Below are positions 15,017 through 48,338 of a DNA stretch of 64,000 nt, piece after piece. Position 1 is the first letter of the stretch; every line of letters begins with the position of its first letter. The DNA comes from a virus, in the IMG/VR virus record IMGVR_UViG_3300028883_000041, positions 21,588 to 85,587 of that record. The stretch is one strand, 5' to 3'. The position numbers were made by a program, and so were the translations under genes. The notes beneath the pieces were generated by a model. It was not told the DNA's origin. It ran no database searches and was given only the letters and a program-made list of their open reading frames with translations.

Positions 15017-16639
15017 TTACCAATCGTAATTTTCTGTTATAGAATACAGAGCTATTGATGAGGTATTTCCTACATTGACTGTATTAGCTTCTATTTTGAC
15101 CCTATATTGTCTTGTAGAACTAACTACTGGAGTAACTGCAACTTCTAATGTCCAGTATTCTGTTAACGTTTCATCAGCATCACAAGCTTCACAATTATGA
15201 GTGTCAGAACCACAAGAAGTCCAAGAACCTAAAGTAGGACTGCTATCTCTGTATTGTAAAGTCATAGTAATGCTTTGACTTCCTAACCAAGTTTCAGTTA
15301 ATTCATTATACCAACCAATAGTAATACATTTCCCTCTTAAATCGAGTTGACTACAACCTTCAGATATATTTATAGGTAAATAAATTATATTCTCATGAGT
15401 TCCTTGAGACCAACTTTCAGCTAAATGATTATGATATGTAGCATCATCCCAATCAAAATTAGCAGTATCTCCAGTCGCATTAAGATAATTCTCAAATGTA
15501 TGAGTTCTCTTTCTTGTTTCAGTAACTGTCAAATCATTGACTGTAACATCTTTAAGATTAGCATCCCCAGCGTTATCTACATAATAGGTTGTACCACCAG
15601 CAAAATTGACTTGACCAGTTACACTGAGAGCACCAGTAACATCAAGCGTTTCTGCTACAGTACCACTACCAGTTATATCTACATCATGAACTGTAGTTTT
15701 TCCAGTAACATCTAAAGTCTCAGTAACAGTTCCGCTACCTCCTATGACTAAATCATCTACTGTAGTTAATCCAGTTACATCGAGAGTTTCTGCAATAGTA
15801 CCAGACCCACCTATTACAATATCATCCACTGTGGTTAATCCAGTGATGTCTAAAGTCTCTGCTATTGTACCGCTACCACCAATAACTAAATCATCAACGG
15901 TTGTAAGACCAGTTACATCTAACGTCTCTGCTATGGTTCCACTTCCTCCAACAACTAAATCATCTATAGTTCCAATTTTGGTTACGGTTAAATTGTCTGG
16001 AACAGTAATAGTTCCAGATGTCATTGTTAAAAGGACTTTCCCTTTATAATCTTTAACTCTCATAGACTCTTCGTTTAATGATATCCATTCATTAGCTCTA
16101 ACTTCTGGATAATCATCACTATGAAGATTAGTTACAGCAGATACGCCACTGGCTGCATCTCTGGTTATTAACGCTATTGGTAATACATTATCTGGTATTT
16201 CAGCATCAGAACCACTCTCCCAAACATAAAATACTTCTCCACTTTCATCTCTGATATTACCAACACTGTCGGTAATACTATCAGCAGCTTCATTAACGTA
16301 AATACCTACTATTCTCTCACCAGCTACTGTTGTTTCTTGATATAAATCTGTAACAAGAATATTAGTTGTTCCACTTGTGAACCACCATCTCCCATTTACT
16401 AAAGCTGCACCAGATGATATATCGAAAGAAGTTCCAGCACCACTGCTGATACCAAGACCCCATCTAACTCTTGATTGTGGACCTAAATCTAACATATCTT
16501 CTATAGTTCTTTGAGCATTGGTAAGTATAGACCTTTCATTTCCAGAAGCATTCCACTGCATATCTTCTATTACTATACCTCCACCGTCTTGAACATTTGA
16601 TTGAGTTATATGTCTTTTACTAATTGATTCTTTTGCCAT
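15017..16639 (-). CDS. Tail fibre/baseplate-attached protein with 23-aa repeats
   Basis: Last gene of the tail module; tandem TVDDLVIGGSGTIAETLDVTGLT repeats. Confidence 0.7.
   Translation of the reverse strand: MAKESISKRHITQSNVQDGGGIVIEDMQWNASGNERSILTNAQRTIEDMLDLGPQSRVRWGLGISSGAGTSFDISSGAALVNGRWWFTSGTTNILVTDLYQETTVAGERIVGIYVNEAADSITDSVGNIRDESGEVFYVWESGSDAEIPDNVLPIALITRDAASGVSAVTNLHSDDYPEVRANEWISLNEESMRVKDYKGKVLLTMTSGTITVPDNLTVTKIGTIDDLVVGGSGTIAETLDVTGLTTVDDLVIGGSGTIAETLDITGLTTVDDIVIGGSGTIAETLDVTGLTTVDDLVIGGSGTVTETLDVTGKTTVHDVDITGSGTVAETLDVTGALSVTGQVNFAGGTTYYVDNAGDANLKDVTVNDLTVTETRKRTHTFENYLNATGDTANFDWDDATYHNHLAESWSQGTHENIIYLPINISEGCSQLDLRGKCITIGWYNELTETWLGSQSITMTLQYRDSSPTLGSWTSCGSDTHNCEACDADETLTEYWTLEVAVTPVVSSTRQYRVKIEANTVNVGNTSSIALYSITENYDW
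15640..15970 (-). repeat. About 5 degenerate 69-bp coding repeats (TVDDLVIGGSGTIAETLDVTG)
   Basis: Visible in the translation; the same unit recurs in the 21328-24177 gene; boundaries approximate. Confidence 0.75.
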
Positions 16640-16640
16640 T

Positions 16641-17339
16641 TTATCTCACTTCTACTTTTATTCTAAATTTAATGCCTAAAGGCTTTACTAAGTTTACTAC
16701 TTGTCTAAGTAATAATCTTTTTTCTGTTTGGTTCCAGTATTCGTATCCACGAGTGTCTGTAATATCATACGTTCCACTGATTAAATATATTGTTATATCA
16801 AACGCTTCTGCATCAGAATTTGTAGACCAATAACTGTAATGAACTGTTTCATCTCTGGGACCACTTGCTATGGTACTCCATAAAGACACACCAGCATCAT
16901 TATAATAATATATCGTTCCATCTTGAGATGGGTCTTCGATACGGATGTTTGTGGTAGTTTGCCAAGTTTCACTTTGGAAGGCACCACTACCTATGTAATG
17001 ATAAATTGCTCGTTTAATACTGTCTTCATTTCCTCCTCCTTCAAACTCAGACCAATATTTTTCTGCTCTTGTAGATAAGTTTGTAGTTGTTTCTTGAGGG
17101 AATTTAGTCATACCCCAATACAATATGTTATCTTCAAGAGGTTGCCCAACAGCATTGATAAGTTCTCTATCTTCATCTCTGATATCATGATAATTCTTCA
17201 ATGTATCATAAACTTGCATGATTGCTAAGAATAATCTGTGAGCATTACTATCATCATCTTTGAAAAAAGCAGACGGATAATATTGATACGGACCACTGCC
17301 AATCAGTTCTCCAAATGTTTTTTCATATGCTGTTGTCAT
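16641..17339 (-). CDS. Baseplate wedge protein (gpI/gp7-like)
   Basis: Follows baseplate J; AVGQPLE..WG and C-terminal VNLVKPLGIKF typical of the family. Confidence 0.6.
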   Translation of the reverse strand: MTTAYEKTFGELIGSGPYQYYPSAFFKDDDSNAHRLFLAIMQVYDTLKNYHDIRDEDRELINAVGQPLEDNILYWGMTKFPQETTTNLSTRAEKYWSEFEGGGNEDSIKRAIYHYIGSGAFQSETWQTTTNIRIEDPSQDGTIYYYNDAGVSLWSTIASGPRDETVHYSYWSTNSDAEAFDITIYLISGTYDITDTRGYEYWNQTEKRLLLRQVVNLVKPLGIKFRIKVEVR

Positions 17340-17344
17340 TTATA

Positions 17345-19660
17345 TCATTCCTTTGCTGAGTTAGTAAATACAATATCATATAATATTGCTACTTCTGACT
17401 TATAAATCACGTTATCAATTGTAGCATTATTAGTTCCACTTATAGGCATCATCACTGAAAATTTAGCATGGTTAGTGTTAAGAGCCCAAGCTGCTGGACC
17501 AGCTTCTTCATCCCATACCATTGCGTATTCTCCAGTCCATGGAACATTACCATCTGTATCAGTACCTACATAAGTATTAGAACCGCTGAAAGCCGAACCA
17601 GATATCACTACCCAATGTTTGGCTGTTGGGTCTGCTAATGTTAATCTACTTGCAAGTTCTACATAGATGTTTTGAGCTGTAGTTGTAGTTAAAGTATGAC
17701 TTCCGCTTTCTAAAGCACTTCCAGAAGGACCAGCATCTGTTCCAGAAAATATATAAACATCAAGAGCATCACCAGTTGTTCCGCTGACATTAAGTAAAAC
17801 TGCATCAATGTCTGTATAATCATAGTTCTCATAATTGAAGATAAGAGTATCTGTTCCACTTGTAAGATATGGGTCAGCAGAACCAGAACTTCCAGAAGTA
17901 ATTGTAATAGTTGTCCCATCATGAGTTGAATAAAAGTCTTGAGCATATAATGGGTCTCTAATCCATACACCATCATTGTCTTGTTTAGCACGAAAAACTG
18001 TTGGTGTAGCTCTTGATACTTGAGATATTTGTGTTCCACTCATAGTAACTGCACCAGCACCAGAATAAGTAAAAATATCTTTATAAGATTTAGTTCCCAT
18101 TTGGAATTGGTGTGCATATGAAGCAGTTCCACTTGTTTGTAAATCTATGCTATAAGTTAAACCATATGGTGTGTAAGAATAGGTAGAAATATCAAAATCA
18201 TCAATATCTAAAGCATAGACACCATTAATTCCCATTCCTTCTTCTATGATTTGTGAATAAACTACATCCTCTCCAACTTTAAGAGTATCGATATAATCAT
18301 CTATAGCATTCTCTACAGATGTATTTAGGGTTGTTCTATTAGCCCACCAATCACTATCTGGTGTTAAATCTATTTCTAAATAGACCCATTTTAACATAGG
18401 TTGGTAAATTTGATATCTTGTTCCTACTGGTCTTTTCGATGATACCGTATCTTCTACAGTATCAATCAACGCACTATTGGTTATAAGTTTGCTATCTCCT
18501 ACAACAAACACATGAATTTGATTAGCAGCGATATAAGGTTTGTTTTCTAAATCATAGACTTTACAATCAGAAATTCCATCTATATCTTCTACTGCTGCTT
18601 CTATTGCACTGTAAGTTGCAGACCCTTGTTTCTTTGAGGCTCTATATATTCTTGTTCTCAGCTGCTCATCAGTTTCTTGGTCTGCACCATTATTAAATAG
18701 ATTTGTTGAACCTAAATGAGTTGATGGATTACTGCAAGTTAAATCAGATACTTGTGTAGCTAATGATGTGTCTGTCCAAATTCTATTTATAGTTGTTGGA
18801 GCAACATTATATGATTTACCAGTTGCTACTGCTCTAACTTCTACTGCTTCTGTTGCACCACTTGCTATATCTACTTCTACTAAAGGTTCATAGACTAATG
18901 ACCTATCTGCTATAGAACATCTATATGAAGTAGTTACTGTAGTATCACTACCAGAATTAGTAACATATACATATCCAGTAGATTTGGTTGCAGCAGTTCT
19001 GGTTAATCCCCATGGATAAGCCAGTTCATCTAAAGCATCTCCAGTTGCTGTTCTAACAAAACTGTTCTTGAAAATAGTATAATTATTACTATCTAATTCA
19101 TGAAGATAACTTGCTATTGCTTCTACTAATGATGTGACAACGGTTCCGTCTGAAAAATTATTTAAGCTTGATTGAACAGTGCTATCATAAACTTTGTATG
19201 TTACCTTAAATATAGAACCATCTTTAGGTCTATAACCAGAAGCATTGTTCCATTTTATAGCATTAAATACATAATCCCCATCATAAACTGAAGTATCTTG
19301 ATTGATTGTTTGTTCAGTTCCAGACCAATACATATAATAATTAATTGTTGGTTCATCATTTTCTACAGCTCCACTCATTGCTGCTGAACCTTCTGCTATT
19401 TGTCCTCTACTACCTTCTGTCCAAGCAGAAATACCATTAAATGTTCCAGTTGGAGGAACCCAATTTCCATCTTCATCTGTTCCTTCAACAGAAATAATTT
19501 CAACAACATTAGGTGTGGTAGTAGTTGAACCACTAAGAACATAAGTAGCAGTATTCTGGTCAAAGGTATATTGCTCTCTTTCTATCCTAACTATACCATC
19601 TCTCATCTGTTCAATAATCTGATTTTTTATTTCTGTAGTAGTTTTAGTTTCATAACTCAT
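17345..19660 (-). CDS. Baseplate J-like wedge protein with insertions
   Basis: TATGDALDELAYPWGLTR, GADQETDEQLRTR, GSATYSAIE, IDTLKVGEDV. Confidence 0.85.
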   Translation of the reverse strand: MSYETKTTTEIKNQIIEQMRDGIVRIEREQYTFDQNTATYVLSGSTTTTPNVVEIISVEGTDEDGNWVPPTGTFNGISAWTEGSRGQIAEGSAAMSGAVENDEPTINYYMYWSGTEQTINQDTSVYDGDYVFNAIKWNNASGYRPKDGSIFKVTYKVYDSTVQSSLNNFSDGTVVTSLVEAIASYLHELDSNNYTIFKNSFVRTATGDALDELAYPWGLTRTAATKSTGYVYVTNSGSDTTVTTSYRCSIADRSLVYEPLVEVDIASGATEAVEVRAVATGKSYNVAPTTINRIWTDTSLATQVSDLTCSNPSTHLGSTNLFNNGADQETDEQLRTRIYRASKKQGSATYSAIEAAVEDIDGISDCKVYDLENKPYIAANQIHVFVVGDSKLITNSALIDTVEDTVSSKRPVGTRYQIYQPMLKWVYLEIDLTPDSDWWANRTTLNTSVENAIDDYIDTLKVGEDVVYSQIIEEGMGINGVYALDIDDFDISTYSYTPYGLTYSIDLQTSGTASYAHQFQMGTKSYKDIFTYSGAGAVTMSGTQISQVSRATPTVFRAKQDNDGVWIRDPLYAQDFYSTHDGTTITITSGSSGSADPYLTSGTDTLIFNYENYDYTDIDAVLLNVSGTTGDALDVYIFSGTDAGPSGSALESGSHTLTTTTAQNIYVELASRLTLADPTAKHWVVISGSAFSGSNTYVGTDTDGNVPWTGEYAMVWDEEAGPAAWALNTNHAKFSVMMPISGTNNATIDNVIYKSEVAILYDIVFTNSAKE

Positions 19661-20109: not shown

Positions 20110-20152
20110 CTGTTATGGTAATTATATAAAGCAATATAATAACTTTATGCTT

Positions 20153-20389: not shown

Positions 20390-20427
20390 GATAAAAAAGT
20401 AGAAAGAGGGATATAAGAACTTTATGC

Positions 20428-20805: not shown

Positions 20806-20845
20806 GAATAAAAAAAGGAAGGGAAGATATTTAAACCTTTTGACA

Positions 20846-21327: not shown

Positions 21328-24177
21328 CTAACTATAATAATATTCACACAACGGAGCTTTACAGTCTAAATCGTTTGCATTGGTACAGATGAAATCCAAT
21401 CTAAGATGTACCCAATCATAAGCACTAACGTCTGTAGTTGTCCAACCTATATCTGTTCTAAGACTGTATTCTATACCAGTATTGTAATTATTCAATGCTG
21501 TTTGACTGTCTAACAGAGTACTGGTTCTACCACTATGAGCGTAGACATATACTCGGTCCCATTCATCACCATTATCAGCATCAAGAAGATTGACTAAGAA
21601 ATCGTATATCTGTAATTCTAAAGTTCCTTCTCCTCTAACAGTTGGTAGAGGCACTACGCCTACAGCTATAAAGTCTTGAGCACCTACGTTAGATATAGTC
21701 ATAGCTGAAGAGTTCCATCTCCAATCATCATAATATCCAGCTGCTGTATTACCATTCATCATGATAGGTATCTTATGTCTGTCAGTAGATTTGGAAGACC
21801 AACCTATGACTTTAGATGCTCCTCTACTAATAGACCCATCACTTGTAGATAAGTTTCCTTCTATCCACAATTCATCTATCGCTGCACCAGAAGCACCTAT
21901 ACTGTAACTATCATCAGTATCTACGAGAATATCTCCACCTATGGTTGTTGTGCCTCCTATGGTGACGTTTCCAGTGACATCTAAAGTCTCACCTATAGTT
22001 CCAGACCCACCTACAACTAAGTCATCCACGGTAGCCTCACCATCAACAACTAAGGTTCCAAAACCTCCTTCTCCAGTAACTTCTAAGTCTTCTGTTACAG
22101 AAGCAGAAGTACCAACAGACAAACCAGCGGCTGTAGAAATATTTCCAGTCACATCCAGTGTTTCAGCCACAGTTCCAGAACCACCAATGACCAAATCATC
22201 CACCGTAGTTAAACCAGTTACATCTAAGGTTTCAGCAATGGTACCGCTTCCTCCTATGGTTATATCATCGACTGTGGTTGAACCACTCATGGTTGATGTT
22301 CCAGAAACGATAAGATTACCAGCAACTGTCGCATCCGTACCATCATCGAAAAGGATACTATCAGTTATATCTTTAGCTGTTCCACTTTCCCATTTGGTAA
22401 GATAATTATCTGTATGACTTGTCCCTTGAACTACATCTCCAGAACCGCTTCCAGCAGCACCAGAAACTGCTGATGGTTCCCATTTACTGTTAGCTTCTAC
22501 CCAAACAAGAGAGTCACCATCACTTGGAGACCCAGCATCTACATCATCTAATTCGTTTAAAACTATACCGCTTGTTGCACCACTAAAAGCAACGGTTCCA
22601 CTAAAGACTGTTGAACCACTGAAAGCCCAATCTCCAGTAACTATCTCGTTCTGAGCTAAGGATGCGTATTGTGGATGGTCATCATCTGATAACCCAGCTA
22701 AATCTCCGTGGTCCGTAACTGGAACAACAGTAAATTGTGTATCAAGAGGACTGAGAATAAGGTCTATATTGGAAGCATCTCGTTCTATGATGACTTTACC
22801 AACAAGTAACCCAAAATCTCTTAACAAAGGAGGAGGAGTTGGTATTGCAGATGCTTCTGCTTCTCCTAATTTATTATAATCATCTTGACCATATTGAACA
22901 TGTAAACTACCGTCTTGTAAAACATAAACTAAATGAACACCATAATCATTACTACCAACTGTTCCTAAAGTTCCGTCTCCATCATCATAATTAGTATTAC
23001 TTATCTGTGCTTGGTCAGTAACTTCTGTCCAACCACCGCCATTAGCCCTATACCAATAACTAAATCTATCACCATTATTTGTATTTAGAGCACTGATAGT
23101 CTCTCTATTATGAGCACAATATAAGACCCCAGCAGTTAATGAAAGATATCGTTCTCCTTCTTCTGCTAAACTCAATCCACTTGCTCGTTCAAAGCCATGT
23201 ATTTCAAAGTCTCTATAACATGCCTTAGTCATATAGTCAGTGATATCTTGACCTACATTATAGATGTAAAGAGTTGTTCCGTCTCTATACACTCTTCCAA
23301 TAACTATTTCTGTATGAAGGTCTAATGAAGTAATATCTACTGTTGCATCAACTTCTGGTGACCCACTACTATAAGACAAATAAATCCAATTGGTATTGTT
23401 ATCTGTTAATGATACACTATCATCCTCAGCCCAATCAAAGAACACATTACTTCCTATATCACTATCTGTTGTTTTGATGATACCAGTTCCAGAGCCAACA
23501 GTAGCTGAACCATCACCATTATCACTTATAGTACCACCAGTGATAAATCCAGCACTTTGAGTATTGTTCCACCAGTCTTCTAAAGTCTTATAAGTAGAAC
23601 CAGAAATGATACTATGATTGATTTGTTCATCATCTAATTCAAATGATGAAACAGCCATAGATTGTAACTCTCCACTATCTTCAAAGAGAATATTATCTGT
23701 AAGAGCAGCTGCATCAATAGTATCAACTACCAGTTTTCCTCCTACTGTGATAGTATCATCACCAGCATTCTGTGTTACAATACTGTCTGCTAATTCGTTA
23801 GCAGCACCACTCCACATAGGGATAGTTCTTATTGTTCCAGAACCACCTACACCGTAGTAAGTTCCAGAACCCCACGCTTCATAAGGTATGGCTACTCCAG
23901 ATATGATAACGAATATATTATTATCATCTGCTCTGAACCCATATTTTGTTCCATCTACTATAGTATCTTTAACATCACCTATAGTTCCACTTCCAAACCC
24001 CAACATGGCTTTGGCTGCATCAAATTCTACATAACCGCTGTTATTAGTCCATGTTTTATTAGTTACTGTTCCACTTACTAAATCAACATCATATCCATCT
24101 GTATCAACATACAATACAGTATAACAATCACTTGAACCACTTACTAAATTATCAGAACCTATATAATATGTCGCCAT
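21328..24177 (-). CDS. Long tail fibre/adhesin
   Basis: Gly/Ser/Thr/Asp-rich; DHGDLAGLSDDDHPQY and LNELDDV fibre motifs; shares the 23-aa repeat. Confidence 0.75.
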   Translation of the reverse strand: MATYYIGSDNLVSGSSDCYTVLYVDTDGYDVDLVSGTVTNKTWTNNSGYVEFDAAKAMLGFGSGTIGDVKDTIVDGTKYGFRADDNNIFVIISGVAIPYEAWGSGTYYGVGGSGTIRTIPMWSGAANELADSIVTQNAGDDTITVGGKLVVDTIDAAALTDNILFEDSGELQSMAVSSFELDDEQINHSIISGSTYKTLEDWWNNTQSAGFITGGTISDNGDGSATVGSGTGIIKTTDSDIGSNVFFDWAEDDSVSLTDNNTNWIYLSYSSGSPEVDATVDITSLDLHTEIVIGRVYRDGTTLYIYNVGQDITDYMTKACYRDFEIHGFERASGLSLAEEGERYLSLTAGVLYCAHNRETISALNTNNGDRFSYWYRANGGGWTEVTDQAQISNTNYDDGDGTLGTVGSNDYGVHLVYVLQDGSLHVQYGQDDYNKLGEAEASAIPTPPPLLRDFGLLVGKVIIERDASNIDLILSPLDTQFTVVPVTDHGDLAGLSDDDHPQYASLAQNEIVTGDWAFSGSTVFSGTVAFSGATSGIVLNELDDVDAGSPSDGDSLVWVEANSKWEPSAVSGAAGSGSGDVVQGTSHTDNYLTKWESGTAKDITDSILFDDGTDATVAGNLIVSGTSTMSGSTTVDDITIGGSGTIAETLDVTGLTTVDDLVIGGSGTVAETLDVTGNISTAAGLSVGTSASVTEDLEVTGEGGFGTLVVDGEATVDDLVVGGSGTIGETLDVTGNVTIGGTTTIGGDILVDTDDSYSIGASGAAIDELWIEGNLSTSDGSISRGASKVIGWSSKSTDRHKIPIMMNGNTAAGYYDDWRWNSSAMTISNVGAQDFIAVGVVPLPTVRGEGTLELQIYDFLVNLLDADNGDEWDRVYVYAHSGRTSTLLDSQTALNNYNTGIEYSLRTDIGWTTTDVSAYDWVHLRLDFICTNANDLDCKAPLCEYYYS

Positions 24178-28647: not shown

Positions 28648-28649
28648 TT

Positions 28650-30528: not shown

Positions 30529-30566
30529 GGGAGGTAGTTATCAGAACTAATATTTAGATGTTTCTG

Positions 30567-31151: not shown

Positions 31152-31189
31152 TATGAATAAAAAAAGGATAAGAAGATTAAAAATCTTTC

Positions 31190-35365: not shown

Positions 35366-35716
35366 TTATTGTTTGTCTTTAGGCACAAGTTTATCTTCGA
35401 TATCTTGTTTATCAAATTCAGTTACATCTTCAAAGTTGTTATTTGCTGAGTAGTGTTTAGGTAACAATCCTATGAAATCGTCATCCCATACCACATCTTG
35501 AGCATGACCTACAACACGAGTAAAACCGAGAACTACTTGTTCTCTTATCCATTCACCTTGATGTAAATCAAACTGTCTTTGTAACTTTATATGTTGAACA
35601 CCATTAAGGTCTTCTATACCAACAAATTGCATGAGTTTTACAATTCTTTGGTCTAAACCAACATCATCCAACTCTTCAGTTTCTTCTTCTAACTCTTCAA
35701 AATCATCCTCTGTCAT
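35366..35716 (-). CDS. Hypothetical acidic protein
   Basis: ORF in the morphogenesis region. Confidence 0.55.
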   Translation of the reverse strand: MTEDDFEELEEETEELDDVGLDQRIVKLMQFVGIEDLNGVQHIKLQRQFDLHQGEWIREQVVLGFTRVVGHAQDVVWDDDFIGLLPKHYSANNNFEDVTEFDKQDIEDKLVPKDKQ

Positions 35717-38745: not shown

Positions 38746-39603
38746 TTAAACACCATCTCCAGCAAGGTTCATCCCTTGTACCCAACCACTATAAATGGTC
38801 TGGTCGCTTGTTACATATATCCTACCACTATCAACAAAGATTGCTGCTTGATTAAGAGTAACTCTGTTAGAACTAAGAGGAAAGCTTCTGGCATAATAAG
38901 GTTTAGAACCAGAACTCCTATCGATAATAACGACTGGAGCTTGGTCATATGCCAATTTCAGTATGTTCTTTAAATTATTAACTTTATCTTCATACATTCT
39001 AAACAGTTCTCCCATAGACATACCTTCTCCCCAAAGTTTGGTTTGAACTCCTAATTCTCCAAGATTATAACTAAACCCTCCTTGGATAGCATTAGAACTG
39101 TTTAATGCTAATATCGAATATTTGACAGCAATAGCATATACTAATAAAATAGCAAGTTGTTCAACGGTATCAGTTGTTGTTAAATCATAATCCCATGTCA
39201 TATCAAATTCATGATTGACTTCTTGTTTTGCTGACTCTAATTCCATCAATATTTGACTATTAGTAAGTCCAGCTTCATAACGATAGGTACATCTTACCTT
39301 CTCACCTATCACAACATTTGCACCAGAAGCAAGAATAACTTGTCCAGTGTTCTCAGTAAAATCAGAACCACTGGTTGTATTATAATAATTACTACCAGAA
39401 TGTGTCAAATCTGTATGTTCCCAAATTCCAGCAACACCTCCAAGGGGAACATTAAAAACATATATCTCATACCCACTTGAACCAGAAAAAACTACTTGTA
39501 ATTCATCTTCAATAGTCGGACTTTGCACTACCCCAGCTTGTGTTAACATATCCCTTACGTTGCTAATATGGTCAGCGTTTTCTGTCGTGCTTAAGAAACT
39601 CAT
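38746..39603 (-). CDS. Head-tail adaptor
   Basis: ISNVRDML N-terminus; FSYNLGELGV; synteny. Confidence 0.55.
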   Translation of the reverse strand: MSFLSTTENADHISNVRDMLTQAGVVQSPTIEDELQVVFSGSSGYEIYVFNVPLGGVAGIWEHTDLTHSGSNYYNTTSGSDFTENTGQVILASGANVVIGEKVRCTYRYEAGLTNSQILMELESAKQEVNHEFDMTWDYDLTTTDTVEQLAILLVYAIAVKYSILALNSSNAIQGGFSYNLGELGVQTKLWGEGMSMGELFRMYEDKVNNLKNILKLAYDQAPVVIIDRSSGSKPYYARSFPLSSNRVTLNQAAIFVDSGRIYVTSDQTIYSGWVQGMNLAGDGV

Positions 39604-39642: not shown

Positions 39643-40626
39643 TTAAATTCTTGTTTTTCCGTTGACTTCAAAACCACAGTTTTTGAACGTAACTTTTCCA
39701 CCATTTAACCAAGTAATAACCTTATCAAAATCATTTTCATCAACATTCATGACAGATACCTTATCATTAGCATCAATCATAGCAAGACCTCTTCCAGCAA
39801 TAATAAAATTCCATGGTCTAATATCTGTAGCATGTTCATATTTCAAATCTCTAAGTAACTTTTCTATGTTAGCAACATATGGAAAAGTTCCATTGAACAC
39901 CATAAAAGTATAAAGATTTATACCTTTAATCCATACTCTTTTTCTACCATCTTGATGATGATAATGTTTATGTTTCCATGAAGACTCAATACCAACCTTA
40001 CTTCTTAGATGAGGAGGACAGTTGTAATATCTTTTCTTCATTCCATTCTTAATAGTAGTTATCATATAGATAGGTCTTTTTCCCCCTTTGGTAACATGAG
40101 AGTCTCCTTCTCCTATTTGTTCTACTTTACCATAGAATAAATCTGGATTTATCTTAACAACTTTATGAGGATTACAAGCATTGGTAGTATTAGGAAGCTC
40201 AATAATTAGCCTATCTCCAAGAGCAGACATTTCATTAACAACATCATTAGGGTCTCCATCTATATGATGAACTACACTCATTGCTAACACTACATCAAAA
40301 TGTTCTATCTCAGACAAAACTTTAATTTTGTATAAATCCATATGGGTTTGTAACAATATGATATTATTCAAATCGTTTCTTACAGCAAGATTTTGTAATT
40401 GTTTTCCATAGAAATTTGGAGACTCAATCATAACTACAGAACTCATTGGATAATCTTCTGCTATCCTAAATGAGAAGTAACCAAGATTAGCACCTATGTC
40501 TAACACAGTAAAACTCCTCTCAAACTTATCAAGAACCTTTTTTATTACTTGATACCTTTTCTCACACTCTCTTACACCTTTCTTTTCCAATTTTCCTTTA
40601 ACCCATATATCTTGATATTGTTCCAT
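39643..40626 (-). CDS. SAM methyltransferase + kinase-like domain (WbdD-like architecture)
   Basis: VLDIGANLGYFS, FDVVLAMSVVHH; C-terminal HATDIRPWNFII..LAMID. Confidence 0.7.
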   Translation of the reverse strand: MEQYQDIWVKGKLEKKGVRECEKRYQVIKKVLDKFERSFTVLDIGANLGYFSFRIAEDYPMSSVVMIESPNFYGKQLQNLAVRNDLNNIILLQTHMDLYKIKVLSEIEHFDVVLAMSVVHHIDGDPNDVVNEMSALGDRLIIELPNTTNACNPHKVVKINPDLFYGKVEQIGEGDSHVTKGGKRPIYMITTIKNGMKKRYYNCPPHLRSKVGIESSWKHKHYHHQDGRKRVWIKGINLYTFMVFNGTFPYVANIEKLLRDLKYEHATDIRPWNFIIAGRGLAMIDANDKVSVMNVDENDFDKVITWLNGGKVTFKNCGFEVNGKTRI

Positions 40627-41384
40627 TATATTCCTAACTCCTTATACCATGTTTTTATGTTCTCACCAGCAATAATATCTGCTTTTGTTCTCATTTCATC
40701 AGTCCAGTTTTCTATTGAAGGATAGATATACTTATTAGCCCAGCTATCATATTTCTTTATAATCAAATCACTGAAATCATAATCTATACCTATAAAAATG
40801 TTAAATAATAACATATCAGTGTAAGGAGGATTGAACATATCTTCCATCTTTAATAACATCATAGGTATAGTCTTTGCAAACTCTTGAGCAACATTTAAAT
40901 ATTTATTCCATATCCAAAGAGCTTTCATAAATGCTTGTTTTTTAGTTCTATCTCCTTTTTTCCACCACTGTGTTGCTGGGTCATCTTTAAACAGAAACGG
41001 ACTTAATCTATCTGTTACTATACTTTCTTCTGTGTTCTTAGTAGTATATCTTGTAGCAAATGAACGGACAAAATCTACTGGATTTCTTATGATATAAACA
41101 ATCTTAGATTCTGGATAACAATCATGAATAATATCAACGATTGGTGTAAAAGCCCAGTTACTCTCAAAGTAATGTTCTGCATTTCCTCTTATCTTTTCTG
41201 TTCTATCCTTAAAGATTTTAGATAACTCATCTCTTGTTATCTCTCCTTTGTAATATGAAACTATATTATGTCTCAGTCTTGGATGTGGTTCATGTTTTCC
41301 AAGATAATGAGTGTTCTTATTAATGTTATGTGCTAACCAACCAGTACCAGTTCTACCAGTCGATACCACAAATACTTCTACCAT
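40626..41384 (-). CDS. Sulfotransferase
   Basis: 5'-PSB loop VVSTGRTGTGWL, HEP, 3'-PB motif IIRNPVDFVRS. Confidence 0.85.
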   Translation of the reverse strand: MVEVFVVSTGRTGTGWLAHNINKNTHYLGKHEPHPRLRHNIVSYYKGEITRDELSKIFKDRTEKIRGNAEHYFESNWAFTPIVDIIHDCYPESKIVYIIRNPVDFVRSFATRYTTKNTEESIVTDRLSPFLFKDDPATQWWKKGDRTKKQAFMKALWIWNKYLNVAQEFAKTIPMMLLKMEDMFNPPYTDMLLFNIFIGIDYDFSDLIIKKYDSWANKYIYPSIENWTDEMRTKADIIAGENIKTWYKELGI

Positions 41385-41403
41385 TTTTTACACCTTTAAT
41401 TTA

Positions 41404-42057
41404 TTATTTTACGAATACTTCAATCATAGACAACCTATTTAGAAGGTGAGGACTATCTACCCAATATGGTTTCATATCAACTATTCTATAATCATGTCCC
41501 CACTTGTGACAGATTTCTTTCATATCTTTTTCAGAATAAAAGAAACTTAAAGGAGGTTTAAAAAAGCCCCATGGTTTGGTCTTTTTACCTATCCACACAG
41601 TAACAAATACTTTTGTTGTAGGCTTCATAATCTTCCATAGATTCTGGATAAATTCTTCAAACATAGCAATAGGATTGTGGTTCAATACAGACACCGCTAT
41701 AATGTAATCTACTTTTGGTAGATAATCAAAGCCGAAATCAGTATTAATATAAAACTCTGCTATCTCTTGCTTATTTCCTACTAATACCTTTCCAGCTTCT
41801 ATGGCTTCTGGACATATATCTACACCTACATAACTTCTACAACCATAGTCATATACCTTATCTAATAATGGTAAAGTCCCACAACCCAAATCTAACAGAG
41901 AGTGTTCTGGTTTAAAACCATTATCTTTTAACAACTGTAAAATCTTCTTAGAACCAACATCCCATGAATAAGTTGATGTTCCAGCAGACTTGGGGTCTAT
42001 TGCAACTTGCTCCTTCATGAATTCAGCATAATTATTTATGTGCTCATCATGTGTCAT
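41404..42057 (-). CDS. Class I SAM methyltransferase
   Basis: LLDLGCG, YVGVDI, DYIIAVSVLNH. Confidence 0.85.
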   Translation of the reverse strand: MTHDEHINNYAEFMKEQVAIDPKSAGTSTYSWDVGSKKILQLLKDNGFKPEHSLLDLGCGTLPLLDKVYDYGCRSYVGVDICPEAIEAGKVLVGNKQEIAEFYINTDFGFDYLPKVDYIIAVSVLNHNPIAMFEEFIQNLWKIMKPTTKVFVTVWIGKKTKPWGFFKPPLSFFYSEKDMKEICHKWGHDYRIVDMKPYWVDSPHLLNRLSMIEVFVK

Positions 42058-42092
42058 GATAACATTTAAATATTTCTAACTTTATTAATCTT

Positions 42093-43112
42093 TTGATGAC
42101 TAAACTTAAGATAGCAGTACCAGCTATACATAAATCACGATTAAGACAAATAGCACGAACTGGTCATGAGATATATTACTTTGATGACGATAGAGAAGTA
42201 GAAAAGGGTTATAACTCAATATTCGATGAGTTCACCAAAGAATTAAACAACATAGAATTCATAGCAAAAAACGATTTTGTTAATAACCCAACAAAATATG
42301 ATTTAATAATATTGCCTAATCAAGCATCTATGCATGAGTTTAGTAGTTATAGTAATTTGCCTAAAGCTTTTATTTGGACTAATGTATGTGATATAAATGA
42401 TAAGGTAAAAAAGTTTTTTGGAAACAACCCATTGATGATTTGTACCTCCAACAACTGGAAACTTAGACCACAAGATAGAACAGTAACAATAGGAGTGGAC
42501 CCAGAAGAATTTCCAGAGAGAGACTTTGAAATGAAACCAATATCAAGAATATTGGCTCCTATAAATAATTTTGTTCATGTAGGGAAAAACTTTGCTAAGA
42601 AACACAGAAACTCTCCTAACTGGTTTGGCGATATACCTAATCAACAATATTTCTGTGAGTTAGTAGGTTATGATTGGGTTGATACACTCTCAAATAATGA
42701 GTATATAAAAATATGTGGAAGAAATCCAGTTTTTAAAGAAGAAACATTAATATCAAGAGAACAATATAAAAAATGGATAAGATTACACTCATCTATTTTA
42801 ATACCATCAAGATTTAAACATCATGCTAATGCAACAGCAGAAGCACTTATGAGTAAACAAGCACTATTAATAAGACCTTCAGTAGAATTTAGAGTCAATT
42901 CTTCTCCTCTTACTGATGAACATGATTGTTTCATAATCAAAACAGAAGACGAGTTAAGAAAATATTATTGTAACGATGGGTGGGTATATGATAGAAAAAG
43001 ACAAGAAGCGATAGCTGAAAATGCTTTGCTTACAGCTCATCAATATTTCAGTATGGATACTTGTGTTGAACGATGGAATGAATTCTTTGAACATGTGGTA
43101 GATTGGCAATGA
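42093..43112 (+). CDS. Divergent GT-B-like glycosyltransferase (paralog A)
   Basis: IGVDPEEF; ATAEALM; FSMDTCVERWNEFF GT-B-like C-terminus. Confidence 0.6.
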   Translation: MMTKLKIAVPAIHKSRLRQIARTGHEIYYFDDDREVEKGYNSIFDEFTKELNNIEFIAKNDFVNNPTKYDLIILPNQASMHEFSSYSNLPKAFIWTNVCDINDKVKKFFGNNPLMICTSNNWKLRPQDRTVTIGVDPEEFPERDFEMKPISRILAPINNFVHVGKNFAKKHRNSPNWFGDIPNQQYFCELVGYDWVDTLSNNEYIKICGRNPVFKEETLISREQYKKWIRLHSSILIPSRFKHHANATAEALMSKQALLIRPSVEFRVNSSPLTDEHDCFIIKTEDELRKYYCNDGWVYDRKRQEAIAENALLTAHQYFSMDTCVERWNEFFEHVVDWQ

Positions 43113-44095
43113 AGATAATAGGAATATACGGTCACATGGGTTTTTCAAGACAGTTGGCTGCCACTAAACACGATTGGACATTTGTTCTATTTGACGATAG
43201 AGCAAAAAAAGAACACGGTTATAGAGACTTGTTTACTGACAAAGAAAAGAACAACTTCAACATCATTGGAACAGACGAATTCTGGGAAAAAATAAACAAC
43301 GATTATTTTGATGCAGTATATCTGGACAAAGACTGGACCATCCAAAGGTTCTGTCATTTAAATATGCCTAAACTTTACGGTTGGGTTAACGTTAGATTAC
43401 CAGTTCCAGAAACAATAAAAGCAATAGGAGATACACCTTTTATACCTACCACTTCTAATGATTGGGATATTAGACCTCAAGATAGAATAGTTTCTATTGG
43501 TGTAGACCCAAACGATTTTCCTAAGAGAGACATAGATGAAGTAATTAATGAAGGATATTTATTCCCAGTAAATTGTTACCTTAAAGTTGCTCTTAGAGCA
43601 GAAAAAGAAGGAGAACACTATCTTAGAGTTGTAGGATATGATTGGGATGATGTTATATCTGACCCTAATCTACCTATAAAGAAATGTGGTTATAATCCAA
43701 TTTATGATGAACGTTTTAAAACAAGTACCAGAGTAGATAGACATGTATTCAAAGAATGGATGAGAAATTATGCTTCTTTGTTTCAACCATCACCTATGAA
43801 ACATCATTCTAATATTATGGCTGAAGCTTTGATGACTGGTCAAGCAATAATTACCAGACCTATGAAACAGTATAGAGTTAACAGTTCTCACCTTATCAAC
43901 AACTGGAATTCTATCATCATCTCAAAGATGGAAGACTTCAGAAAACTCCATCGTAGTGGGTTCTTAAAAGATAAAAAGAAATTAAAACAGTTAGGGGAAA
44001 ATGCTCATCAAACTGCTATAGACCATTTCAACATGAAAAGAACTACAGAAAAATGGGAAGAGTTCATAGAACATTCTATTGCTTGGCAATCTTAG
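43103..44095 (+). CDS. Divergent GT-B-like glycosyltransferase (paralog B)
   Basis: Shares RPQDR, IGVDP, VGYDW, KHH, AEALM and RVNSS with paralog A. Confidence 0.6.
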   Translation: MAMKIIGIYGHMGFSRQLAATKHDWTFVLFDDRAKKEHGYRDLFTDKEKNNFNIIGTDEFWEKINNDYFDAVYLDKDWTIQRFCHLNMPKLYGWVNVRLPVPETIKAIGDTPFIPTTSNDWDIRPQDRIVSIGVDPNDFPKRDIDEVINEGYLFPVNCYLKVALRAEKEGEHYLRVVGYDWDDVISDPNLPIKKCGYNPIYDERFKTSTRVDRHVFKEWMRNYASLFQPSPMKHHSNIMAEALMTGQAIITRPMKQYRVNSSHLINNWNSIIISKMEDFRKLHRSGFLKDKKKLKQLGENAHQTAIDHFNMKRTTEKWEEFIEHSIAWQS

Positions 44096-44843
44096 TCCAT
44101 TTCTCTTTTAAATATTTCCAGTTAGGATTATGTTGTATTTTATGAGCATGAGGAATATGTTTATGTAAGTCCTTTGTCCAACCTATATCAATATGCCACA
44201 CTCTCTTATTATTTGGTATGATAGCGTAGCCACGGTGAATGAGTTGGAGAGCAAAATCAGTATCCTCTAATCCCCATTCACCATCGAAGTTACTATCATA
44301 TCTTGCTCCCCAATCGTCTTTATGCCATAACCAAAACAGAATTGCATTAACATGATATCTTGGATTTAATGCTGTTTCTACTTTATTCAAAGTTATAGGA
44401 CAACCATGTCCGTGTTCGTTAGGCAATTTGAACTCTTTTGAATATTCTGTTTGAACTACCCTTGGATTATATACAACTTTAGAATAAGGTGTAGATAAAC
44501 TGAGAACATTTTCAAGAAGAGTTTTTTCCATGATACAATCATCACCTATGATACCTATGAATATCTTATCAGACCCAGAATATCTTTTAGTAACATAATC
44601 CAAACCAAAGTTTATTGTAGAAGAAAGCTGATATTCTTCTGTTTTCTTGAAGAATAATTCTGTTACTGGAGTTATACAATGATGTCCAATAATGGTATTT
44701 TTCTCATAGTTTTTTACCAAAATAACTTCATCAAACATTTCCTTCTGATTATCAAGTTGTTTGAGAACTTCTATGAGAACCTCTCTATCTTTCTTATCTG
44801 TCTTATGGGTTGGTATGATTAATACTCTGGGATAGTTATCCAT
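44076..44843 (-). CDS. GT2/GT-A glycosyltransferase
   Basis: LIIPT, DEVIL, GDDC (DxD-like), FDGEWGLEDTDF, WH. Confidence 0.75.
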   Translation of the reverse strand: MDNYPRVLIIPTHKTDKKDREVLIEVLKQLDNQKEMFDEVILVKNYEKNTIIGHHCITPVTELFFKKTEEYQLSSTINFGLDYVTKRYSGSDKIFIGIIGDDCIMEKTLLENVLSLSTPYSKVVYNPRVVQTEYSKEFKLPNEHGHGCPITLNKVETALNPRYHVNAILFWLWHKDDWGARYDSNFDGEWGLEDTDFALQLIHRGYAIIPNNKRVWHIDIGWTKDLHKHIPHAHKIQHNPNWKYLKEKWTKIAKQ

Positions 44844-44851
44844 CGTATCAC

Positions 44852-45109
44852 CTAAAGAACTAATCCTTCAATACCGTTGAGTTCACAAACCATGTAATTA
44901 ATCTCTTCCCCATGGAAGATATAATACATCAGACTATCATTCTCATCACATAAGAAACGAATGGTTCTTCCACCGAACTTAACTTTTAGAATGTTTTTCA
45001 TATGAACAGCGGTTCCGTCTTTTAGATAAACTACTCTGCTTAATTCTATTGGTTCCCCATCTTCTCTTTCTAATGTTATGTATTCTTTCTTTTTTTCTTC
45101 TAACGTCAT
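44852..45109 (-). CDS. Hypothetical protein
   Basis: ATGA overlap with the epimerase gene. Confidence 0.55.
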   Translation of the reverse strand: MTLEEKKKEYITLEREDGEPIELSRVVYLKDGTAVHMKNILKVKFGGRTIRFLCDENDSLMYYIFHGEEINYMVCELNGIEGLVL

Positions 45110-46017
45110 TTTTCTTTTACCTCCTTATAATATTCTACTAATTCTTTTATTCCTTCTTTCAATGGAGTGCATTCAAATCCTAAGATATTTTTTGCACGAG
45201 TTGTATCTGCATGTGCTCTGTCTATATTACCATAGAAATCTTTTCCAAAAACAAAATGAAGTTCTTTTTCTGCTATTTCTGAAATCATTATTGCTAAATC
45301 CATAATAGATACTTCCTCTCCAGCCACATTAAAGTCATGACCCCATGCTTCGAGTTCTATAATCTTCTCTACAACATAGACCAAATCTCTAACATCTGTA
45401 AAGGTTCTCATCTGAGTTCCATCACCATGCACTTCTATTTGTTCTTCAGCCAATATTTTCTTAGTAAATACATTAACTACATTATGAGCATATGCTCCAT
45501 AAACAGAGTAGGGTCTGATATTACATGCTTTTAGCTCATCTTTGTTTCTGAAATATTGAACATAAGCATCACCAGCAGCCTTACTGATTGTATAAGGAGT
45601 TGGAATTCCATCCATGAATTTATGGTCTTCTTTAACTAATTTACCTTTAGGCATACCATAAACAGAACCAGATGAAAAATTAATAAGTTTAGTATTTAAG
45701 AATGCACACAAATATGAAACTGTTACAGAAGTTACTATGTTCTTATAAACATCCCCTACTGGGTCATTGATAGTGTCCATCATATGCATACAAGCCAAAT
45801 TAATAACTATATGATGGTCAGCTATTAGCCTTTCAATTACTGGATAATTAGCCGCATCTCCTCTGATAACTCTATCAGCAATACCGTCTATTCTACCCAT
45901 TTCTCCACGTGAGAAATCATCGAATACTGTCACCCAATAATCTAACTCTTTAAGTCGTTTTACAATGTGGGAGCCGATAAACCCAGCTCCTCCGATAACC
46001 AAAATCTTTTTTGTCAT
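45106..46017 (-). CDS. NAD-dependent nucleotide-sugar epimerase/dehydratase (extended SDR)
   Basis: GGAGFIG, SSGSVYG, YTISK, GDGTQMRTF. Confidence 0.9.
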   Translation of the reverse strand: MTKKILVIGGAGFIGSHIVKRLKELDYWVTVFDDFSRGEMGRIDGIADRVIRGDAANYPVIERLIADHHIVINLACMHMMDTINDPVGDVYKNIVTSVTVSYLCAFLNTKLINFSSGSVYGMPKGKLVKEDHKFMDGIPTPYTISKAAGDAYVQYFRNKDELKACNIRPYSVYGAYAHNVVNVFTKKILAEEQIEVHGDGTQMRTFTDVRDLVYVVEKIIELEAWGHDFNVAGEEVSIMDLAIMISEIAEKELHFVFGKDFYGNIDRAHADTTRAKNILGFECTPLKEGIKELVEYYKEVKEK

Positions 46018-46059
46018 ATATAACGTTAAAGATTTTTAACCTTTTAAAGTTTTTGATTT

Positions 46060-46356
46060 CTATCGCAGATTTTGGTCTCGTTCTTTAACAAGAACATAAT
46101 CCGACCTTGCTTGTAACCATCTAATACTCCATTGTATCCACAGAAAGAAGAATAATGGTAAATTAATCAATACAAGAAATATTGCTCCAGCAAAGAACCA
46201 TTTCCAATCTTCTGAAGGGTAATTGACAGCAAACCAGATGAATACAACAGCATAAGCTAATTGTATCAATCCTATTAAAATCATAACACCATACTTGGTT
46301 ACTATATCAAAGACATTAACATCTACATATTTTAATTGTAACTTTCTTTTACTCAT
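46060..46356 (-). CDS. Two-TM membrane protein
   Basis: Two hydrophobic helices. Confidence 0.55.
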   Translation of the reverse strand: MSKRKLQLKYVDVNVFDIVTKYGVMILIGLIQLAYAVVFIWFAVNYPSEDWKWFFAGAIFLVLINLPLFFFLWIQWSIRWLQARSDYVLVKERDQNLR

Positions 46357-46361
46357 AACTA

Positions 46362-46637
46362 TTACTTCCTTATCTCATCTATAAGTTTTACTAAATCTCC
46401 TTTAGTTACTGCATCAGACCACATAACAGTATCTCTATCAGCACGGAACCTATATGGTGTTCCAGCTGGTATGTGGATAGTATCCCCTTCCATGAACTGT
46501 TTCTCTTCTTCACCTAAAACAAAACTACCAGTTCCTTCAAGAATTAAAACTTCATCATCAAGAAGAGAATGATATTGATAGTCAGTGCTCTGGTCCTTTT
46601 TAATGTAAGATAAACCCAAGATGGTTAGTTCTTCCAT
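46362..46637 (-). CDS. Cupin-fold protein
   Basis: Likely start MEELT (46637); YH..DEVLILEGTG..GDTIHIPAGTPYRF. Confidence 0.7.
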   Translation of the reverse strand: MEELTILGLSYIKKDQSTDYQYHSLLDDEVLILEGTGSFVLGEEEKQFMEGDTIHIPAGTPYRFRADRDTVMWSDAVTKGDLVKLIDEIRK

Positions 46638-46707
46638 ATTTAATAATAAGAATGATGAGTTTTTAAATGTTGTTAAAAAAAATAAAAAGGGATGAATAGT
46701 TTTACAA

Positions 46708-47727
46708 CTATCCAACGTAATTTGCTGGGTCTAAAGCTGTCAGATTATCTAACCTACATGCCGCATCTGGATTGACCACACCAACACCTACTCTCGCTGT
46801 CATGTACAATGCCATGGCATCGTGAGAGATGATTGACTCTTGGTCTACAGACAATGGTCGCCTTACAAATCGTATGGCGTATTGCTGAGTGTTCAAGAAC
46901 AGTGCTTTGGTTGTACTCATCCATGGAGTTGAAATAATATTCAACCCAGCGATTGGGTACATATTTCCAGTTCTGAATGTTTGTTGCTGGTCTGGAGGCA
47001 ATACTTGGAACACATTACTTGACATAAATTGGTCCATCTTCATCAACTGTAATAAGTTGTAAGGATGAATAACTAATGTATCGTATGGAATTCCTTCTGC
47101 TTGTCCTACTGCAAGACACATTTGTATCTTTTCCCAGTCTAAAACACCAGATGTTCCAGAGAATGTAGTGTCAGTTGCATCTAGTACATGGTTTGAAACT
47201 TGCTGACCAGTTTTGAAGTTTGTAGTTCCGTCAGAAACACCGTTCAACAGTGTTTGGATAATCAATTTATCTTCAAATCTTGCACATGCGTTCATACCAT
47301 TTTGAACTTGTCTTGAAACCACGTCAAATGACTGTACGTCTTCAATTGCTTCATTAGTAATTGAAACACCTACACCGAATTTCTGTACACGAACAGTTAC
47401 CTTACCGTATTTTGGTTTGGCGATTGGTATCTCGACACCTTCTCCCAAAGGATATGCATCGAAACCACTCTCGAACATGTATGAAATCATTGGTGAATTC
47501 ACTGTCATGGTTTGTACTAAGTTTGCACCAACTAAATCTGGTATATATTCTGTAAAGAATTCACGATTGAATGCCTCTGTAATATATAACAGCATGTCAT
47601 CTCTTGATATATACTGTGTAATTTCATTTAGGTTTGTGGGCTTCTTAACCATTTTTCCTTTGTAAGGAATATAGTTTGAGGCTCCCCAACTTCTAATTCT
47701 ATCGTCTGCTACTGCCATTTTTACCAT
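46708..47727 (-). CDS. Major capsid protein (HK97 fold)
   Basis: GEGVEIP..KFGVGVSITNEAIED..EDKLII..DTLVIHP..IAGLNIISTPWM; likely start 47718. Confidence 0.88.
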   Translation of the reverse strand: MVKMAVADDRIRSWGASNYIPYKGKMVKKPTNLNEITQYISRDDMLLYITEAFNREFFTEYIPDLVGANLVQTMTVNSPMISYMFESGFDAYPLGEGVEIPIAKPKYGKVTVRVQKFGVGVSITNEAIEDVQSFDVVSRQVQNGMNACARFEDKLIIQTLLNGVSDGTTNFKTGQQVSNHVLDATDTTFSGTSGVLDWEKIQMCLAVGQAEGIPYDTLVIHPYNLLQLMKMDQFMSSNVFQVLPPDQQQTFRTGNMYPIAGLNIISTPWMSTTKALFLNTQQYAIRFVRRPLSVDQESIISHDAMALYMTARVGVGVVNPDAACRLDNLTALDPANYVG

Positions 47728-48338
47728 CCTCTCTTATATGTTGGGTCGACAAGAACTTTGCCTACCGTTCCTTCAGTTGTCCAAACTTGTGGACCTTCGG
47801 AACCACTTGAAACTCTAATGACTTTTCCAATAACAATTCTGTTATAGGGGTCTGATAGATATTCCACGTATCCGTCTGTACCGCTTGATAGGGTTACAAA
47901 TTTACCAGCTGTAGGTAAGGTACCGCTATATGGCATCCATACTGGTTCATCAGTTACATATCCGAAAATATACATATTCTCGAAGTCTGCACTTCCAGAG
48001 AACCATTGAGTAATATCAGTTGGACTTCCAGTTTGTAGGAAGGTCAATGGGGCATCAGTTGTTGATATACCAAGTATTCCATAATCGTGACTTGAACCAC
48101 TGATAGTTGTTCCATAAGTTGCAACATCAGTTGCTGCTGCTTTGTTTGCACGTGGAATAATTTGTTCTACTCTGCTTGTAGCACTTCCATACCATTGAGT
48201 TGAGCTATCGTCAGACTCATCGGTTTTAACGAGTACCATTCCAGCTTTCCATGATGCACCAGAACCAAGTTGGCACATCTTTACGTTTTTAGGTTTGTAG
48301 TGTAAACCTTCTTGGTAAGGCATTCTAAAGTTTGGCAT
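47721..48338 (-). CDS. Capsid cement/decoration protein
   Basis: Between protease and MCP; ILGIS, AGKFVTL..IVIGKV pattern. Confidence 0.6.
   Translation of the reverse strand: MPNFRMPYQEGLHYKPKNVKMCQLGSGASWKAGMVLVKTDESDDSSTQWYGSATSRVEQIIPRANKAAATDVATYGTTISGSSHDYGILGISTTDAPLTFLQTGSPTDITQWFSGSADFENMYIFGYVTDEPVWMPYSGTLPTAGKFVTLSSGTDGYVEYLSDPYNRIVIGKVIRVSSGSEGPQVWTTEGTVGKVLVDPTYKRGW

Follow-up and report, generated by a model that had tools for sequence, protein, structure and literature searches.

Glycosylation of tailed-virus particles by virus enzymes is, to our knowledge, experimentally known only in a few actinobacteriophages, for which a short acceptor motif has yet to be defined; mycobacteriophages of the Che8 type reportedly O-glycosylate their virions with phage-encoded glycosyltransferases. 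In streptococci and staphylococci, the O-linked N-acetylglucosamine (O-GlcNAc) transferase complex GtfA-GtfB, made of a GT4 enzyme and a catalytically degenerate GT-B partner, modifies serine-rich-repeat adhesins in the cytoplasm; GT4 enzymes as a family are retaining and have the GT-B fold. The general O-glycosylation motif of Bacteroidota is D-(S/T)-(A/I/L/V/M/T), and the Ser-Gly sites of animal proteoglycans are xylosylated by a Golgi GT14 xylosyltransferase that favours acidic flanks. Here we analyse an uncultured tailed virus, IMG/VR record IMGVR_UViG_3300028883_000041, in a window (the whole stretch of DNA analysed, 64,000 nucleotides) covering bases 21588-85587 of the 85.6 kb record, with a G+C content of about 35%. 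Its exposed virion proteins are strongly enriched in the tripeptide S-G-[S/T/A], and its late structural operon contains two adjacent GT4 genes, here named GT4a and GT4b. The tripeptide is, in our judgement, probably a sequon for virus-encoded O-glycosylation of serine in exposed turns by a GT4 heterodimer, a reading we hold with considerable reserve. The statistics of the motif, its conservation and its co-distribution with the GT4 pair are observed directly.

Excess of S-G-[S/T/A] in exposed virion proteins

Across nine exposed virion proteins, 81 of the 104 SG dipeptides are followed by S, T or A. Pooled residue shuffles predict 10.4 such sites when residues are permuted globally, 12.6 when permuted within 20-residue windows and 14.6 within 10-residue windows (z about 19-22). 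SGS, SGT and SGA each occur at 6-8.5 times expectation, and among all tripeptides of the protein set SGT ranks first and SGS second in over-representation. The excess is specific to the word. In the same shuffles TG[STA] is not enriched (8 sites, where about 11.5 are expected), and neither AGS and AGT nor the words with G, D, N or V in the third position exceed expectation. Permuted and reversed words are much weaker: GS[STA] reaches 2.0 times expectation and S[STA]G 1.3 times, and G[STA]S stands at expectation. The motif had first been noticed in a reading of the sequence without database searches, hereafter the sequence-only reading, and its hand counts of SG dipeptides in eight of the nine proteins (all but the 232-aa one) agree exactly with the totals listed below. 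The recount also agrees that SG is absent from the terminase, the portal and the 192-aa tube and occurs once in the SF2 helicase. That most SG dipeptides are S-G-S/T/A likewise holds, and Ser and Gly composition does not explain the excess, GS not being equally enriched.

The residue preceding the motif is G, S, T or F; the flanks favour hydrophobic residues along with G and F, and such D/E signals as there are stem from a repeat in the fibres. The motif serines are encoded by AGT, TCT and AGC. The use of both serine codon families, AGY and TCY, places the signal at the protein level, and a DNA-level origin was rejected, the nine-base codon strings at the sites being diverse. TCA never directly precedes GGN at the motif because the genome totally avoids CAGG/CCTG (0 found against 120-168 expected). 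An archaeal-type N-x-S/T sequon was tried separately and rejected (32 observed against 40 expected, 0.8 times). In the literature on phages and archaeal viruses, our searches brought up no report of S-G-[S/T/A] as an acceptor motif.

The proteins concerned belong to a contractile-tail structural module on the minus strand, running from about 51 kb down to 15 kb of the window. The module starts with the portal, a 402-amino-acid (aa) protein, a 205-aa protein, an HK97-type capsid protein, an accessory island, and proteins of 285 and 192 aa; it continues with the two GT4 genes, two unknowns, a 248-aa protein, the sheath, tube-like proteins and a tape-measure-like protein; and it ends with a hub/spike-like protein, a 949-aa fibre, small baseplate proteins, baseplate J, a 232-aa protein and a 540-aa fibre. 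The terminase gene comes next after the module, on the plus strand. Features of the module are as follows.

15017..16639, minus strand: tail fibre, 540 aa; 13 SG, 10 SG[STA] against 1.2 expected; at least 4 copies of a 23-aa repeat with the core GGSGT(I/V)AETLD
16641..17339, minus strand: 232-aa baseplate protein adjoining J; 4 SG, 2 SG[STA] against 0.2 expected
17345..19660, minus strand: baseplate J / wedge-like protein, 771 aa; 19 SG, 18 SG[STA] against 1.6 expected
21328..24177, minus strand: tail fibre, 949 aa; 28 SG, 21 SG[STA] against 3.0 expected; 23-aa repeat in common with the 540-aa fibre
24177..25094, minus strand: hub/spike-like protein, 305 aa, with a weak DUF2345 / baseplate assembly match; 10 SG, 6 SG[STA] against 1.3 expected
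25096..31768, minus strand: internal controls without excess, namely the tape-measure-like protein of 1012 aa (2 SG[STA] against 0.8 expected) and a Ser-rich protein of 446 aa (1 against 0.8)
within 25096..31768, minus strand: open reading frames (ORFs) of 133, 194 and 192 aa beside the sheath, including the 192-aa tube; no SG[STA] in any
31775..33070, minus strand: contractile tail sheath, 431 aa; 6 SG, all of them SG[STA], against 1.1 expected
33109..33855, minus strand: 248-aa protein beside the sheath (possible tail terminator, as a lead only); 10 SG, 7 SG[STA] against 0.7 expected
35703..36830, minus strand: GT4a, 375 aa, Glycos_transf_1; signature E-x7-Q; predicted partner of GT4b
36831..38162, minus strand: GT4b, 443 aa, Glycos_transf_1; E-x7-E intact
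38746..39603, minus strand: 285-aa protein (called adaptor by position alone; no family match); 8 SG, 5 SG[STA] against 0.6 expected
39643..46715, both strands: accessory glycan island, only in the present genome
46708..47727, minus strand: HK97-type major capsid protein, 339 aa; a single SGT
47721..48338, minus strand: 205-aa protein downstream of the capsid gene (possible cement/decoration protein, as a lead); 6 SG, all of them SG[STA], against 0.6 expected

The sheath assignment is backed by PHROG tail sheath matches and by a structural model (predicted local distance difference test score, pLDDT, 79.6) for which Foldseek returned the sheaths of contractile injection systems and phage 812, with E down to 5e-15 and probability 1.00. 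The tail terminator label is a lead from an Atlas structure with a template-modelling (TM) score of 0.56 to PF23961 clusters, and the cement label one from Atlas matches of 0.95-0.96 to phage cement clusters. The fibre repeat, 23 aa long with the core VDDLVIGGSGT(I/V)AETLDV, is present in at least 4 copies in each of the two fibres. A fibre in an otherwise unrelated viral contig (L029:16013-19852) has 39% identity to part of the 949-aa fibre.

Location of the motif within the particle

The excess is carried by the fibres, baseplate J and its 232-aa neighbour, the hub/spike-like protein, the sheath, the 248-aa and 285-aa proteins of the neck region and the cement-like protein, and amounts to 7-11 times expectation in the fibres and baseplate J and to 5-10 times in the sheath, neck and cement proteins. 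The portal, the terminase, the tube-like and tape-measure-like proteins, the 446-aa protein with its 12% Ser and all replication proteins are without it. The remaining proteins of the genome (22,395 aa) contain 17 SG[STA] against 10.3 expected, and a baseline of 74 unrelated viral loci gives 506 against 323 (1.56 times).

Within single proteins the sites are also unevenly placed. Baseplate J has none in residues 268-509, the larger part of its phrog_6-matched stretch (165-490), and 13 in its C-terminal extension. The sequence-only reading had placed the motif on virion surfaces, and in the confident sheath model all six sites do lie in loops; they fall within residues 37-246, two of them directly after a strand. 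The mapping rests on the sheath model, the AlphaFold model of the 205-aa cement-like protein being poor (pLDDT 47.8). The capsid protein has one SG[STA], the SGT at residue 190 in FSGTSGV, and exactly one is found in 13 of 13 full-length homologues; this SGT may be a conserved acceptor on the capsid face.

Conservation of the motif and its contrast between clades

A capsid search and an alignment-based scan identified four relatives (G001-G004) with capsid proteins 57-74% identical to that of the present virus, together with which they form clade A; single-protein and small-alignment scans of viral contigs gave nothing beyond the same five relatives. The sheath, neck, cement and baseplate orthologues of clade A are 37-65% identical and keep the motif excess. 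There are 6, 6, 6 and 7 SG[STA] in the sheath orthologues, 5, 7, 7 and 7 in those of the 248-aa protein, 3, 5, 5 and 5 in those of the 285-aa protein, 5, 6, 6 and 6 in the cement-like proteins, 14 and 12 in baseplate J, and 7 and 9 in the 540-aa fibre orthologues of G001 and G002. Many sites are fixed in position with the third residue switching between S, T and A and the flanks diverging, and other sites are gained or lost. Motif serines are conserved at 67% within clade A; the figure is 34% for the remaining serines and 47% over all residues. The closest long relative, G001, is a 79,254-base IMG/VR record classed as carrying direct terminal repeats, and these suggest that it is complete at about 79 kb; as its completeness estimate is 47%, such estimates may be too low for this virus group.

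An exhaustive search found 26 sheath homologues in total, and their clades differ in motif count. Clade B sheaths, about 30% identical to the present one, carry 5-8 sites. Three clade B contigs (L106, L107 and L109) have the matching local gene order and both GT4 genes (43% and 29% identical), and their sheaths hold 3-7 sites against about 1 expected. The motif is mostly absent from clade C, which has no match in viral contigs or in genome contigs. Clade D sheath homologues have 0-1 sites. This clade comprises three contigs of 46, 71 and 75 kb (CheckV 34-59% complete) that share with the present virus the DNA polymerase, a 1192-aa replication protein, terminase, baseplate J, tape measure, sheath, capsid and cement homologues in the same local gene order. 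On the sequence available from these incomplete contigs there is no match to PF00534 (Glycos_transf_1) or PF00535 (Glycos_transf_2), and GT4a is absent from the contigs of G006-G009. Motif counts on the clade D contigs are at background: 2 and 0 in baseplate J, 0-2 in the sheath, 0-1 in the 248-aa-type protein and 1-2 in the cement-like protein, with genome totals of 24 observed against 16.0 expected, 17 against 13.5 and 15 against 8.2. The GT4 pair and the motif thus occur together in clades A and B, and neither is found on the available clade D contigs; retention of the motif in homologues without glycosyltransferases, which the sequence-only reading had named as refuting its idea, is not seen.

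At aligned sites, clade D often retains the Gly but not the preceding Ser. HSGSNYY in clade A corresponds to HVGTNYY or HTGTNYY in clade D, and SGS to TGG; at a cement-like site, SGTDGYVE corresponds to AVTDGYVA or TNTDGYVE, the flanking TDGYVE being kept and SG replaced. Since the clade D homologues carry other residues (V, T, G or N) where clade A has the Ser, the fold does not need it. From these alignments, the motif Ser looks as if it had been written onto pre-existing Gly turns in the lineages with the GT4 pair. Among clade A core genes without a BLAST homologue in clade D, the GT4 pair alone matches a sugar or modification family; the other family-matched genes are helix-turn-helix-like, and several more match no family. 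Those of them that flank the sheath very likely do have counterparts in clade D, homologous by position but diverged.

The two clades resemble each other in restriction-site avoidance. CAGG, CCTG and GATC are absent from the present record (120-269 expected), in which CTAG occurs 5 times against 269 expected, and CAGG, CCTG and GATC are likewise at zero in the clade D relatives G006-G008. This shared avoidance suggests a shared restriction pressure and probably similar hosts.

The GT4 pair

GT4a and GT4b match PF00534 with 50.2 and 56.7 bits, above the curated cut-off of 26.4. Their genes abut each other within the late structural operon and occupy the same place in G001-G004. In GT4b the E-x7-E signature is intact, with E321 and E329 invariant in 21 homologues. 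GT4a lacks the second Glu: its corresponding stretch, GESWGLPYIQ, has Q there in clade A (E-x7-Q), and N takes that position in clade B (E-x7-N). Among solved structures, both enzymes come closest to B736L of chlorovirus NY-2A (PDB 3oy2; E 4e-6 and 4e-9), a weak match confined to the C-terminal domain.

A complex of GT4b and GT4a is predicted with an interface score (ipSAE) of 0.83, against 0.00 for the best control. In a benchmark of the ipSAE mark, 58 of 80 solved complexes and 2 of 110 mismatched pairs reached it. At least 83% of contacts recur between prediction runs, and the partner has a pLDDT of at least 89. The predicted interface sets the conserved C-terminal tail of GT4b (residues 433-443) against residues 207-239 of GT4a.

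In G002 (L011:6874-8886) and G003 the GT4a orthologue is 670 aa long instead of about 375. The additional length is an intein-like insertion just past the conserved GES/AWGLP motif, with a Cys after QSMA at its start and HN followed by Cys at its end; its match to the Pfam Intein_splicing family is weak (E 6e-6, below the cut-off).

Proposed function and its alternatives

As relatives without the GT4 pair are also without the motif, the motif is probably an address by which the virus sugar-coats its own particle. We infer that the motif serines are glycosylated and that the GT4 pair is responsible, and what sugar they receive would be a matter of the same inference. In the mechanism we propose, GT4a and GT4b would be made as soluble proteins from the late structural operon and would act in the cytoplasm with a nucleotide sugar. 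GT4b, with its signature intact, would be the likely catalytic subunit, and GT4a a non-catalytic or altered partner in the heterodimer. The putative target serines would occupy Gly turns where strands end, facing outwards on fibres, baseplate, hub, sheath, neck and capsid decoration protein. The word is missing from the proteins that the particle encloses (tube, tape measure, portal) and from non-structural proteins. If true, this would be a new protein O-glycosylation system, bearing on the protease resistance of virions, on sticking to non-hosts and on the evasion of recognition, and possibly providing a portable tool for Ser-specific glyco-tagging. Distinctly unlikely, in our estimate, is the widest version, in which a three-residue code is read by a dedicated GT4 heterodimer on nearly every exposed virion protein, the host is archaeal and the glycan is further methylated and sulfated in the present strain. 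Should that version hold and the host be an archaeon, the archaeal world would gain its first known pair of enzyme and sequon for protein O-glycosylation.

Several observations weigh against the sequon reading. Very large fibre-like proteins in unrelated viral loci already reach 2-3 times expectation, so that the true excess over a fibre baseline is about 3-fold rather than 8-fold, and this enrichment, together with the 3-4 times found in clade D fibres, means that part of the signal is general to such proteins. In clade B the excess is weaker and patchier, and the terminator-like protein has only 0-1 sites despite the presence of the GT4 pair. The contrast of clades A and B with clade D amounts to roughly one evolutionary event, through which shared ancestry could link two unrelated traits, and a transferase could lie outside the incomplete clade D contigs. 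Distant GT4 homologues, single or paired, come without motif excess in 74 other viral loci; the NCBIfam matches of GT4a and GT4b are all far below cut-offs; and GT4 enzymes more often build glycolipids or polysaccharides than modify proteins. GT-B dimers, GtfA-GtfB among them, have already been solved, and the pass of the predicted complex may reflect likeness to them.

Some of these points would equally fit a motif that is a structural or physico-chemical solution (a turn, hydration, loop flexibility) fixed in one lineage with no covalent modification, the GT4 pair acting on the host envelope or making a polysaccharide or glycolipid. The sites do lie at strand ends and turns, Gly is often kept even in relatives without the pair, the same word is enriched in unrelated phage fibres, the co-distribution counts for about one event, and non-protein acceptors are common for GT4 enzymes. 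We nevertheless rate this explanation as rather unlikely, because a preference for turns leaves unexplained why position 1 is Ser and not Thr (81 against 8), turns of the NG or DG type are not enriched, and the word spans unrelated folds in exposed proteins only. Moreover, homologues fold with V, T, G or N at the site, yet within clade A the motif Ser is twice as conserved as other serines, and the GT4 genes stand inside the late structural operon. A compositional or repeat artefact, arising from Ser/Gly-rich low complexity or duplicated repeat units, is refuted: the proteins are indeed rich in S, G and T and the two fibres share the SGT-carrying 23-aa repeat, but the excess survives shuffling within 10 residues (81 against 14.6), masking the extra repeat copies removes only 6 sites and leaves 75, and the Ser-rich 446-aa protein has a single site.

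The word could instead be the site of another enzyme, either from the host (an O-glycosyltransferase or a kinase) or from the virus (a protein whose family is unknown), with the GT4 pair merely extending the modification or unrelated to it. Candidates exist in clade A core genes of 481, 307 and 195 aa that have neither a BLAST homologue in clade D nor a family assignment, and GT4a lacks the second signature Glu. Those three genes are, however, in the replication module and not in the structural operon, where no kinase or other modifying enzyme was found, and clades A and D show the same restriction avoidance, a hint of similar hosts, while the motif occurs only in the GT4-bearing clades. We consider such an enzyme quite improbable, and the sequon reading remains the one we prefer.

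The accessory island and host signals

The sequence-only reading had pointed to genes for glycan enzymes among the structural genes. Family matches show these to be real, and they fall into two groups of different standing: the GT4 pair at 35703-38162, which travels with the motif, and the island at 39643-46715, which does not, being absent from the four relatives. The proposal that viral glycosyltransferases act on SG[STA] is therefore partly supported, for the former and not for the latter. The island contains the following genes.

39643-40626: methyltransferase
40626-41384: sulfotransferase
41404-42057: methyltransferase
42093-43112 and 43103-44095, plus strand, opposite to their neighbours: two paralogous unknowns with no family match
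44076-44843: weak GT2
45106-46017: NDP-sugar epimerase/dehydratase
46362-46715: cupin

In G001-G004 there are no orthologues of the island at this place, and the 285-aa and capsid genes are adjacent or nearly so, which marks the island as a strain-specific addition at an insertion hot spot. A homologue (30% identity) of one of the plus-strand paralogues stands at the adaptor-capsid junction of G004 (L017:10154-11170), and the junction looks like such a hot spot. In the present genome only, the epimerase/dehydratase, cupin, GT2, two methyltransferases and sulfotransferase may extend or decorate the glycan. A sulfated and methylated coat is thus not supported as a general feature and would be at most a strain-specific decoration, given the absence of the island from all four relatives.

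The suggestion of an Asgard host found no support. A capsid alignment searched against 185,579 species genomes yielded no provirus and hence no host by that route. Shine-Dalgarno-like words precede 73 of 120 genes and a TATA-like peak near -30 is faint, signals that leave bacterial and archaeal hosts undecided.

Comparison with known systems

The likeness to animal proteoglycans, from which a proteoglycan-like coat had been proposed, is formal only and lies in Ser followed by Gly as the acceptor. Pfam and NCBIfam scans of the island proteins gave only GT4, weak GT2, methyltransferase, sulfotransferase, epimerase and cupin matches, with no xylosyltransferase family and no GT14-type match, and the motif has no consistent acidic flanks; the proposal is accordingly not supported. 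With the Bacteroidota system the present virus shares a three-residue O-glycosylation motif, here a putative one, across many unrelated surface proteins. That system is host-encoded, lipid-linked and periplasmic, whereas here G, S, T or F precedes the Ser where that motif has D, and soluble GT4s are the candidates for the enzymes. Chloroviruses likewise encode soluble transferases and have atypical acceptor sites on the capsid, and their B736L is the top PDB match of both GT4s; their glycans, in contrast, are N-linked to Asn, and the host is a eukaryotic alga.

Closer in its proposed mode of action is GtfA-GtfB. Adjacent GT4 genes, an E-x7-E enzyme with an E-x7-Q/N partner and a predicted heterodimer recall that complex, which modifies Ser amid small residues. 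A PDB sequence search returned no GtfA or GtfB chain at E <= 0.01, and a Pfam scan no DUF1975; the GT4 pair would thus resemble GtfA-GtfB by analogy and is not a family member by sequence. The putative substrates differ as well, being folded virion proteins with isolated sites and not long Ser-rich repeats.

Phages of the Che8 type are similar in being tailed viruses with their own glycosyltransferases, in having structural proteins as the presumed acceptors and in a modification that would be cytoplasmic, before or during assembly. As siphoviruses that infect Actinobacteria, they reportedly carry the modification on subunits of the capsid and the tail tube, whereas in the present myovirus at least nine proteins share a defined three-residue word and the tube is without it. 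Set beside these systems, the present case offers a sharply defined candidate sequon, two small soluble candidate enzymes and a natural negative control in sister viruses without both.

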